Virus record (IMG/VR): IMGVR_UViG_2850756110_000011
Reading direction: 5' to 3' (one strand)
From: a virus
Taxonomy: Duplodnaviria; Heunggongvirae; Uroviricota; Caudoviricetes
DNA length: 38,644 bases
Position numbers and translations under genes: made by a program. The notes under the pieces are model-generated. The model had not been told where the DNA came from. It searched no databases and was given only the letters and a program-made list of their open reading frames with translations. The first letter of the stretch is position 1. The number at the start of each line of letters is the position of its first letter. Positions 15,175 through 17,927 of the stretch are shown here, one piece after another.

Positions 15175-15305
15175 GTAGATCATGCAGGTGCATGAAAACC
15201 ACTACATAAAGCGGGCAGGCGTGGCGGGGATACGATTGCGCGCTAGGTATAAGTGTGTAAAATAATTCCAAAATAAATCATCACTAATGAAGTGAGAGGG
15301 TAATA

Positions 15306-16955
15306 ATGTTAGTCAAGAAAAATAAAAATTATAGTTTATATTTTTTAATTACAAATAATCAACAGATATCTGATTCTGGTAATTATATAAAAATAGTCCC
15401 ATCAAGAAGCGATTGGAATGATTTTGGATATTTGAGTAGAGTCGAAATATCTATTTTTAATAAAAAAGAGTGTAAGGATATAATTTCACTGAATGGTTAT
15501 ATTGGTTTTTTGAATTCAGAGGAGGAACGAAATGGAAAAGCAGAACTGATAAGGCGAGTGAAAAAAAAGGAAGAATCTAATTTAAAGGATGAGGGGTTTA
15601 ATGATTATTTTGTCATGCTTCAGGATATGAATAATTATCGAAGACTAGTAAGATTTTTTGGGGTGAATGAATCCAAATATATATTAAATTTCATTAATGA
15701 TGTTGTTTCTAAGAAAAGTGACGCTAGTGCAGAGAATTTGAGGAAAAAAGCAATCTCTTCTGATATCTTTAATAAATCTTTCATTAGAGAGTCTGAGTCG
15801 TATTTTACTTTCAAAAATGCAGGAACAGTTCTTTCCGGTATTCAATATGAGGAGTTGGGTAATTTATCACAGCACATCAAGATTAGCTATTCGAATAAAG
15901 TTAATGAAGAAGATGTATCTTATGTTTTTAATTTTGATCACGAGCATGATTTACCAAAAAGAATTTCCATAATTATAGGCGAGAATGGTGTAGGAAAAAG
16001 CCAAACGCTTAGAGAAATCGCATTGGCTGCGATTAAAGGAAAGGATAATTTGGTGGCTGTAGTTGATTCTAACGGTGTGAGCATTGAAGAACGAATTCAA
16101 ATTAGTAGGCTCATTGCTTTTTCTCCAACAAATGAAAGTAAGTGTTCATTTCCAACCGATAAAAGAATAAAATCATTGATATGGTACAAAAGATTGACTT
16201 TAAATCGTGAATCAAAATCCAAATTAAACTTGAATGATTTAATAGTGCAACTAGCGAGGAGTAACGACGCTATCGGCTATAATCAAAGGTGGAATATATT
16301 TGTTGATGCACTGAGTGTTCTAAATAGTAACAACGATTTAGTAATCAAATGTGGCGGTGAAAATTCACCATTTGTTAAATTAAATGAGCTTAATTCTCGA
16401 GGCGAAGAATCTAGACTATCATTATATTCTGAAATTATTCTCTCTGGCGAGCCTTTGAGGCTTATTGAAAATAAATGTTACCCTTTGAGTAGTGGGGAAA
16501 TATCGTTTATTAAGTTTTGTGTACAAGTTTGTTTGTATATTGAGAATGGGACTCTTCTATTAATAGATGAGCCAGAAACACATCTCCATCCTTCATTTAT
16601 TAATAAATTTATGGCATTGCTTGATAATTTATTAGAAAAGACAGGCTCTTCAGCTATCATAGCAACGCATTCGGTTTATCTTGTTCGGGAGGTTTTTAAG
16701 GAGCAAGTGACAATACTCAGAAGACGAGATGATGGGGTAATTGTTAGCGAAAAACCGAGATTGAGTACTTTTGGGGCGAATATAGGAAATATCTCATATT
16801 TTGTTTTCGGTGAGAGTGAACCAACTCAAATTTTAAATAAAGTAAAAAACAATATAATTGCAAAGAATATGTCTTGGGATGATGTTGAATCTAAATATAG
16901 CGAGGACTTATCACTTAATGTATTAACTGCGTTGAGAAATGAAATGGGCAATTGA
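15306..16955 (+). CDS. ABC/AAA_21-type ATPase (549 aa) with a roughly 215-aa N-terminal domain of unknown function; candidate defence protein (PtuA-like)
   Basis: Walker A GENGVGKS, signature-like LSSGE, Walker B/D-loop LLLIDEPETHLHP, H-loop IIATHS; gene is strongly AT-rich. Confidence 0.8.
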   Translation: MLVKKNKNYSLYFLITNNQQISDSGNYIKIVPSRSDWNDFGYLSRVEISIFNKKECKDIISLNGYIGFLNSEEERNGKAELIRRVKKKEESNLKDEGFNDYFVMLQDMNNYRRLVRFFGVNESKYILNFINDVVSKKSDASAENLRKKAISSDIFNKSFIRESESYFTFKNAGTVLSGIQYEELGNLSQHIKISYSNKVNEEDVSYVFNFDHEHDLPKRISIIIGENGVGKSQTLREIALAAIKGKDNLVAVVDSNGVSIEERIQISRLIAFSPTNESKCSFPTDKRIKSLIWYKRLTLNRESKSKLNLNDLIVQLARSNDAIGYNQRWNIFVDALSVLNSNNDLVIKCGGENSPFVKLNELNSRGEESRLSLYSEIILSGEPLRLIENKCYPLSSGEISFIKFCVQVCLYIENGTLLLIDEPETHLHPSFINKFMALLDNLLEKTGSSAIIATHSVYLVREVFKEQVTILRRRDDGVIVSEKPRLSTFGANIGNISYFVFGESEPTQILNKVKNNIIAKNMSWDDVESKYSEDLSLNVLTALRNEMGN

Positions 16956-17820
16956 AATGAATAAATTAAAAAGACCTGTTTTTAAAGATTATTCTGCATT
17001 TAAAAAACTATCTGCAAATAAGAGATTAAAACATCATTCTGTTCTGAATGGACAGGATACATTTATACTTAATGCATATAGATCGTACATAAAGAATAAA
17101 GGGTATCTTAATGTCAATTCTTGTGGCGTATTGAGTAACAATATTGCTGAAGCTTTGAGATATTATTATAACAATCCCGCAAAGTGTTTATCTATAATTG
17201 ATGATATAAGAGCAGCTAATTCTAACTCTCTATGTCCAATGTGTGGTTCAATGCATAGCGGGACTTTGGATCATGTTTTACCCAAGGAAAACTATCCAGA
17301 ATTTTCTTTATTCACTAAGAATTTGGTTCCTGCTTGCAAATGTAATACTTTCAAAAGTACTACTATAGCTAATTCTGCAGGCCATCGGATGCTGCATCCA
17401 TATTTTGATAATATATTAAAACAAAGATTAATATGTGCTAATTTTTCTAAATTAGGGCGAACACCTACAATTGATGTAAAAATCATAATTGACCCAATGT
17501 CACCAGAATATAACAATGTTAAGTATCATCTTGATAATGTTGTTATCAAGAATAATATTAAGGGGTATTTGTCTGAACAATGGGAGTCGTTTTACTTATA
17601 TCCTGAGCTTGTTATTAGAGGACTGAATAAGAGTCTTTCTACTTATAGCGATGTATATGAGTTGTTGACTCGCGAGTTGTTGCTGTTGGATGAAAAACAT
17701 AAAGGTAAAAATAATTGGAATTCGGTTTTTGTAGCTGGGTTAATTCGACCTGATGTGATTAGGTGGATACTCTGTGAATTACATTTAGGTAACAGAAGTC
17801 CAGACGGTCGTCTCATATGA
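16939..17820 (+). CDS. HNH-motif nuclease (293 aa); candidate defence effector (PtuB-like)
   Basis: CPMCGSMHSGTLDHVLPKENYPE...LVPACKCN; overlaps the ATPase stop by 17 nt (alternative start 16957); AT-rich. Confidence 0.75.
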   Translation: MKWAIEMNKLKRPVFKDYSAFKKLSANKRLKHHSVLNGQDTFILNAYRSYIKNKGYLNVNSCGVLSNNIAEALRYYYNNPAKCLSIIDDIRAANSNSLCPMCGSMHSGTLDHVLPKENYPEFSLFTKNLVPACKCNTFKSTTIANSAGHRMLHPYFDNILKQRLICANFSKLGRTPTIDVKIIIDPMSPEYNNVKYHLDNVVIKNNIKGYLSEQWESFYLYPELVIRGLNKSLSTYSDVYELLTRELLLLDEKHKGKNNWNSVFVAGLIRPDVIRWILCELHLGNRSPDGRLI

Positions 17821-17927
17821 TTTTTTGCATCTTCAGCGTGTATCTGCACGCTGAAGAAATTCATAAAAACTGCTGCCTATTAATAAATTTTTTTAGCTGA
17901 GTTAAAGAACCTCATTTAGTGATTACG

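Follow-up and report, generated by a model that had tools for sequence, protein, structure and literature searches.

The members of the Septu family (PtuA/PtuB) that have been solved or tested, and that serve as comparators throughout this work, are stand-alone systems of E. coli, represented by the structures PDB 8EE4, 8EEA and 8SUX, together with Septu EcB88. Septu EcB88 depends on both the Walker residues of the ATPase and the HNH residues of the nuclease, acts through abortive infection and cuts tRNA-Tyr in the variable loop (PMC13096335); cleavage of tRNA-Tyr is described for both of the E. coli PtuAB systems that were studied. Stand-alone PtuAB has also been described as a hexameric ATPase-nuclease assembly whose nicking of DNA is inhibited by ATP (as summarised in PMC12819146). 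Here we analyse a two-gene cassette that occupies positions 15244-17927 of a 38,644-nucleotide stretch of DNA from a virus of the Caudoviricetes (IMG/VR record IMGVR_UViG_2850756110_000011), the whole of which is referred to as the window. The cassette is a divergent member of the Septu family, belonging to an Ea59/Ea31-like branch already catalogued as PADLOC class PDC-M01, and is not an undescribed system. That it is a homologue of Septu we regard as very probable, and a role in anti-phage defence, for which it is a candidate, as likely.

Two open reading frames (ORFs) of the same orientation were listed on the plus strand, 15306-16955 (549 residues) and 16939-17820 (293 residues), from which the original prediction read a pair of co-oriented, overlapping genes. 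The frames and their orientation stand, but the overlap does not. The second gene almost certainly starts at 16957, because the N terminus encoded from there (MNKL...) hardly varies among 23 homologues and RefSeq places the start at the same codon; use of the upstream ATG at 16939 is improbable. Between the genes there is thus a gap of 1 nt (TGA-A-ATG) instead of an overlap of 17 nt. The 2.7-kb insert in which they lie has a computed GC (guanine plus cytosine) content of 31.9% and a GC at third codon positions (GC3) of 0.25-0.26, against 49.6% in the left flank (13530-15243) and 55.6% in the right (17928-26600), and windowed GC falls from 0.55 to 0.23 over 15200-15300. This bears out the claim that the cassette is far more AT-rich than its flanks, and its description as foreign cargo that pairs an ABC-type ATPase with an HNH nuclease also survives.

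Gene 1 (15306-16955, plus strand) encodes an intact ATP-binding cassette (ABC) ATPase of 549 residues whose fold is nearest to that of PtuA. Residues 221-460 match Pfam AAA_21 along its whole length (3e-16), and within this region lie a Walker A motif at G225-S232 (containing K231), the signature L394-SSGE-398, Walker B at D421-E422 and the H-loop histidine H455, all four motifs being invariant in 24 sequences (homologues 41-82% identical). The ATPase is preceded by an N-terminal domain of ~190 residues, here called the WNDF domain, in which P32 and N38-D39-F40 are invariant. In PADLOC-DB, the protein matches PDC-M01A (3.2e-55, 185 bits, residues 27-539 against 31-551 of 566), the Septu PtuA profile PDLC00282 over its full length (1e-31) and a further 10 PtuA profiles in part. 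A Foldseek search of the PDB with the AlphaFold2 (AF2) model of gene 1 (pLDDT 80) placed PtuA chains in all of the top 14 positions (E 3e-8 to 9e-7, probability 1.00). These derive from retron Ec83, retron Ec78/Eco7 and another type I-A retron complex; E. coli Septu PtuA chains appear from rank 17, and SMC heads, OLD and GajA rank behind PtuA. In a sequence search of the PDB, gene 1 matches 8EE4 PtuA only at E 0.0017, in the C-terminal part. Weaker matches were obtained to AriA, GajA and OLD, and the protein falls in PHROG 8066 (9e-211), a family of unknown function.

Gene 2 (16957-17820, plus strand) encodes a PtuB-like protein of 287 residues that is predicted to be an intact beta-beta-alpha-Me HNH nuclease with a core homologous to the HNH of PtuB. 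Numbered from the 16957 start, its HNH motif comprises C93xxC96, D105-H106, N122, C127xC129-N130 and H147, invariant in the 23 homologues, and is followed by a conserved helical C-terminal domain (~150-287, ~140 residues) with an HKGKNNWNS motif. The protein matches PDC-M01B of PADLOC-DB (1.2e-33, 115 bits, residues 8-270 against 3-263 of 280), and the accessory domains of the pair, N-terminal in gene 1 and C-terminal in gene 2, match the PDC-M01 profiles only. Other resources recognise gene 2 poorly. Pfam does not identify it, and matched HNH in just 2 of the 23 homologues; searches of PDB sequences, with single sequences and with profiles as queries, returned nothing save a marginal HNH match (4h9d, E 0.12); and PHROGs assign it to a family of unknown function. 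The structural model, weak in its HNH part, gave no Foldseek match in the PDB at E<0.6, PtuB being its best, albeit weak, structural neighbour. Taken over both proteins, profiles, Foldseek and HNH core homology make Septu the closest characterised system, as the original prediction had suggested.

The claim that the system might be undescribed fails, because it is listed in two places and gene 1 matches a PtuA profile. One listing is PDC-M01 itself, which belongs to a set of 145 untested candidates; the set was drawn from genes that sit inside BREX, DISARM or type I restriction-modification loci (Payne et al. 2024, bioRxiv 10.1101/2024.01.29.577857). In a survey of Bacillus cereus, PDC-M01 calls duplicate Septu calls (PMC11811056). 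The other is the survey of P2 hotspots by Rousset et al. (2022), in which the cassette is system #155 of Table S5B, with 12 occurrences (PMC9122126). The protein portions printed in that table differ from the window by one residue, and the locus table of the same study includes the accessions under which the cassette occurs in E. coli. There, #155 is labelled NLR-like, 'AAA_21/AAA_15/AAA_25/NB-ARC | HNH_5', and not Septu. Neither the cassette sequences nor the term HNH were found in the other supplementary files of that work, among them part 1 of 4 of its tested-systems table.

A second system from the same survey, #17 of the P4 hotspot ('AAA_15/AAA_21 | HNH_4', 80 occurrences), does carry the Septu label (Rousset et al. 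2022, PMC9122126). The N-terminal domain of gene 1 aligns with the #17 ATPase (hhalign 97.9%, E 6e-13) and the HNH core of gene 2 with its 281-residue nuclease (BLASTP 2e-12), so that the WNDF domain and HNH core are common to the two systems, although they are only ~23-33% identical. The gene 2 profile also aligns, at 93% probability, with another PtuB that carries the Septu label. On sequence grounds, the architecture of gene 1 can be called a recognised variant of Septu, and not a unique one, because its N-terminal domain also occurs in the Septu-labelled #17 and in Ea59 of lambda. The earlier description of gene 1 as atypical is thus accurate when the solved E. coli PtuA is the reference (Walker A lysine K231, against K43) and goes too far only if taken to mean unique.

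The ea59/ea31 genes in the b region of phage lambda (NC_001416, 24509-26973) are full-length, distant homologues of the cassette (15306-17820). In a tblastn search of phage genomes, the only phage relatives were Ea59/Ea31 of the lambda group and a few metagenomic phages, the lambda pair being matched at 6e-13 (ATPase) and 2e-8 (nuclease). Comparison of profiles extends the relationship to the accessory domains: the gene 1 profile aligns with Ea59 over 473 columns (hhalign 99.5%, E 5e-23), including the N-terminal WND(F/Y) domain, and the gene 2 profile with Ea31 over 195 columns (98.1%, E 6e-14), including the C-terminal domain. Ea59 itself matches PDC-M01A at 4e-201 and PtuA PDLC00282 at 5e-184, and Ea31 matches PDC-M01B at 6e-113. 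As in the cassette, the ATPase gene comes first, ea59 lying directly 5' of ea31 with a 4-nt overlap, and the two are found upstream of int. Ea59 and Ea31 are named as early proteins of lambda. A literature search for ea59 together with Septu found no paper.

The two genes are translationally coupled and stay paired on prophages, integrative and conjugative elements (ICEs), defence islands and plasmids of Proteobacteria. Among 5426 complete E. coli genomes, 3 contain the cassette at >99% identity, and in all of them it belongs to a P2-like prophage, with a DinI-like gene on one side and the portal gene on the other; a megablast search of a phage collection yielded no close copy. Both proteins have full-length homologues (~40-55% identity) in Gamma-, Beta- and Alphaproteobacteria, and at least 35 ATPase/partner pairs were recovered on contigs of equal size in the two homologue lists. 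In all three of the distant neighbourhoods examined, the pair is kept with the ATPase first and with 4-nt overlaps or a 5-nt gap. In Pseudoxanthomonas it lies on an ICE beside a RES toxin, in Salmonella in an integrase-flanked element with HipA and a ScoMcrA-like HNH protein, and in Microvirga in an island with GmrSD, GIY-YIG and an Eco57I-type enzyme. On five of the rhizobial and Agrobacterium plasmids listed, the partner gene adjoins or overlaps a gene annotated as 'AAA family ATPase'. At E<=1e-30 the gene 2 profile retrieves 185 representative clusters, a number that rises to 2401 at E<=1e-10. Its best 150 matches are mostly stand-alone proteins of ~275-300 residues, the remainder being shorter and apparently partial, and include no fusion.

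The left junction of the cargo is the cos site of the prophage (15218-15236), at which a 19-nt cohesive end, GGCGTGGCGGGGATACGAT, is followed by a conserved TGCGCGC ending at 15243. Aligned with the annotated cosL/cosR of P2, GGCGAGGCGGGGAAAGCAC-TGCGCGC, the sequence is identical at 14 of 19 positions and then at 7 of 7, and the upstream context, GTGCAT..AAGCGGGC, also aligns with the surroundings of P2 cos. Homology of the left flank to other P2-like phages (90-98%) ends at 15243/15244 and on the right restarts only at 17952-18001, where the portal gene (17928-18959, minus strand) has its final codons. The cargo therefore lies in the cos-to-gpQ interval. Its right junction falls in the AT-rich 3' end of the portal gene (17928-18000, minus strand), where GC remains at 0.20-0.32 as far as ~17990. 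The last ~8-24 portal codons are outside the region homologous to other P2-like phages, and it appears that the C-terminal tail of the portal protein comes with the variable module.

This position, with the DinI-like gene on one side and the portal gene on the other, is part of the gpA-gpQ interval, a published defence hotspot (Rousset et al. 2022, PMC9122126). The original prediction had placed the cassette at the tin/old hotspot of P2, which is right as to the DinI-portal location and the gpA-gpQ hotspot but not as to the side: in P2, cos separates tin and old from this position, both positions being within the hotspot. In one of the E. coli carriers, the tin/old side is occupied as well, by another insert of 2.5 kb that falls between window positions 15023 and 15093, and given this second cargo the hotspot has two sub-sites, one to either side of cos. 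The cos-to-portal site, with flanks like those of the window, is occupied in Klebsiella phage Kp4845-2 (626-3353) by Lamassu (LmuA 2e-142, LmuB 2e-253), and in Escherichia phage 500465-1 (1716-2144) it holds a short bSEFIR/TIR gene. A defence role for the cassette is supported because these other cos-to-portal cargos of related phages are defence systems and because the PDC class is defined by embedding in defence loci.

Between cos and gene 1 lies an AT-rich leader (15244-15305, plus strand) with a good Shine-Dalgarno sequence, GAGAGGG, at 15294-15300. Any promoter of the cassette would have to be within this leader or overlap cos. Upstream of cos, a GC-rich hairpin followed by UUUU (15146-15171, plus strand) resembles a terminator; it has a folding free energy (dG) of -23.4 kcal/mol (z -4.2), and none of 200 shuffled sequences folded equally well. 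A terminator preceding the cassette had been predicted at 15149-15174, and the hairpin is indeed there. It is, however, no part of the insert, belonging to the conserved left flank of cos that is shared by P2-like phages, and is the end of the A/DinI early operon. A perfect 12-bp hairpin also separates the convergent gene 2 and portal gene (17830-17857; dG -20.8, z -5.9, on the plus strand and -19.1, z -5.3, on the minus strand). A T-run is lacking on both strands, and the hairpin may serve to terminate transcription in both directions or to stabilise RNA.

The prophage that carries the cassette is a remnant: its replication gene A has been truncated by insertion sequence (IS) elements, and its portal gene carries a nonsense mutation, so that it cannot make virions. 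Homology to an intact prophage of uropathogenic E. coli (UPEC) starts only at 13530, inside gene A, and the portal gene has a stop codon, K199*, at 18363-18365 relative to the UPEC prophage, which is otherwise 99.6% identical. In place of the left part of the prophage, window positions 4197-13530 hold a pile-up of IS elements, with transposase genes of the IS66 (two), IS110 (two) and IS3 (one) families. The nearest protein cluster bears the name of Shigella dysenteriae, in keeping with an IS-rich genome of the Shigella type. The cassette itself is intact, with 5 nucleotide differences from the UPEC copy, 4 of them synonymous. An intact cassette in a decaying prophage is consistent with retention for function, and does not prove it. 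Elsewhere in the window, further dips in GC (0.40-0.51) occur at 26500-28000 and 35500-38000, inside or beyond the late-gene region, and in the UPEC relative a DUF5677 gene follows the virion-morphogenesis gene, which may mark another variable cargo position.

A number of observations weigh against reading the cassette as a working member of the Septu family. Both proteins are only remotely similar to the solved PtuA and PtuB (for gene 1 and PtuA, 11-15% identity and TM-scores of 0.27-0.43), gene 1 scores 41 bits with the NCBIfam PtuA equivalog NF041760, for which the cut-off is 500, and searches of PDB sequences, with single sequences and with profiles as queries, returned generic ABC matches only (UvrA, EF3 and AriA). 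TIGR02646 matches gene 2 at just E 0.075. The layout of the ATPase differs as well. Solved Septu PtuA has its Walker A near the N terminus and a long insert, and lacks the ~190-residue N-terminal extension of gene 1, in which the Walker A lysine and Walker B aspartate (K231 and D421) are 190 residues apart, compared with 273 in EcB88 PtuA (K43 and D316; PMC13096335). Because gene 1 departs in this way from solved Septu, its assembly, trigger and substrate may differ too. With regard to function, a search of the literature, including searches by protein accession, found no functional test of the PDC-M01/#155 branch, and in the lambda-engineering papers found, ea59 and ea31 are handled as dispensable b-region genes with no stated function. 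Finally, the cassette had been credited with a putative promoter and a ribosome-binding site of its own. The latter is present in the leader, but a promoter scan found no promoter-like site in 15244-15305, and such sites occur across the region at chance level (14 found against 15.1 expected).

These points have to be set beside four other explanations, all of which are disfavoured, mainly because of the distribution of the conserved pair outside phages and the motif evidence. The lambda homologues suggest that the pair could be an accessory of the phage life cycle, with a role in lytic growth such as the degradation of host or competitor nucleic acids or the processing of tRNA. The clear homology of ea59-ea31, in the same order and upstream of int in the b region, speaks for this, as do the position of the cassette against cos and the late packaging genes and a promoter scan that gave no lysogen-active promoter. 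We nevertheless consider it unlikely: homologues are common on ICEs, defence islands and plasmids, where a lytic role would be senseless, the cassette has remained intact in a remnant unable to replicate or to build portals, and in neighbouring phages the same site holds systems that protect the lysogen. The location directly beside cos and the portal and terminase genes might equally be taken to indicate a packaging-associated HNH endonuclease with an ATPase helper. HNH proteins assist terminase in some cos phages, HK97 gp74 being an example. Yet P2 and nearly all P2-like prophages package without the cassette, and its foreign composition and its homologues outside phages make such a function scarcely credible.

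The remaining alternatives concern the nature of the two proteins. A selfish addiction or homing module, with the HNH protein as a homing or toxin nuclease, the ATPase as its antitoxin or regulator and no anti-phage role, the pair being maintained through post-segregational killing or the cutting of empty sites, would fit the Pfam description of AAA_21 ('putative AbiEii toxin, type IV TA', that is, toxin-antitoxin), as well as the sharp junctions at a fixed site, the foreign composition and the patchy occurrence in complete E. coli genomes. Sharp junctions are, however, shared by the unrelated Lamassu and TIR cargos and so reflect exchange at the level of the site and not homing by the HNH of gene 2; in other taxa the pair occupies different, unrelated sites, and the partner has a fixed architecture of ~288 residues and is always found with the ATPase. 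A purely selfish module is therefore quite improbable, although addiction and defence by abortive infection are compatible with each other. The published label of #155, which includes NB-ARC, implies instead an NLR-like STAND NTPase, in which ligand-induced oligomerisation activates a nuclease effector (Rousset et al. 2022). Weak Pfam matches to NACHT, nSTAND3 and nSTAND_NTPase5 (E 0.007-0.015) point in the same direction, but they span only ~30-50 residues around the P-loop and are under the curated cut-offs, whereas AAA_21 extends over 221-460 and LSSGE, the Walker B DE and the H-loop histidine are invariant. The fold neighbours, moreover, are ABC/SMC-type ATPases (PtuA, SMC head, OLD and GajA) and include no STAND proteins, which renders a STAND identity highly improbable.

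For the cassette as a Septu homologue with a defence function, a mode of action can be sketched by analogy with the systems studied. An oligomer of the ATPase would act as a scaffold that binds the nuclease and holds it inactive as long as the cell is uninfected and replete with ATP. A cue from the phage, possibly together with falling ATP, would be sensed through the ATPase, with the family-specific N-terminal WNDF domain as a proposed sensing or assembly element. The released HNH nuclease might then nick DNA, cleave a tRNA or do both, whereupon translation and replication would stop and the infection would abort. Our confidence in the specific trigger and substrate is lower than that in the defence role. 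A bolder possibility, which we regard as tentative and rather doubtful, is that the PDC-M01 branch is a mechanistically distinct Septu lineage, in which the WNDF domain serves as sensor or assembly element in place of the long insert of solved PtuA, and the C-terminal domain of the nuclease confers another substrate or stoichiometry. The branch recurs in three kinds of temperate phage, in the lambda b region, in the cos-to-portal interval of P2-like phages and in the hotspot of P4 satellites.

If the cassette does protect, it would add to Septu, which is among the commonest of defence families, an experimentally untouched branch with another domain layout, one that could show how ABC-ATPase scaffolds swap sensor modules. 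The published 'NLR-like' annotation of a P2-hotspot system would then be corrected and PDC-M01 merged with Septu. Should the branch be a distinct lineage, characterising the cassette would also assign a function to the orphan genes ea59 and ea31 of lambda. The most interesting by-product of this work is that homology already provides a concrete and cheap hypothesis for these two genes. For the genome itself the result is an ordinary one: a prophage hotspot that was already known holds a further defence cargo, kept intact while the prophage around it decays.

Comparison with known systems places the cassette as follows. P2 Old, Gabija GajA and AriA/AriB of PARIS involve defence ABC ATPases of the same superfamily and are found in the same P2/P4 hotspots. 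As candidates for the cassette, OLD, Gabija and PARIS were rejected, there being no TOPRIM or DUF4435 match, and the effector of the cassette being a separate HNH protein. A type I-A retron (Ec78/Eco7, Ec83; Septu type II of PADLOC) was likewise rejected, as 13000-20500 contains no ORF for a reverse transcriptase and an Rfam scan of 14400-18200 at E<=1 returned neither a retron RNA nor any other RNA family. With Septu, the cassette shares two adjacent genes on the same strand, the ATPase before the HNH nuclease, conserved as a pair, and gene 1, like PtuA, is an ABC ATPase with Walker A, signature, Walker B and H-loop all intact. Lambda Ea59/Ea31 has the same gene order and architecture and also belongs to PDC-M01, and differs in sequence (~23% identity in the ATPase and ~37% in the HNH core), in residing in another phage at another locus and in having a third, downstream gene, ea47. 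It is PDC-M01 that both proteins of the cassette match best and over their full length, and from which they show no structural difference.

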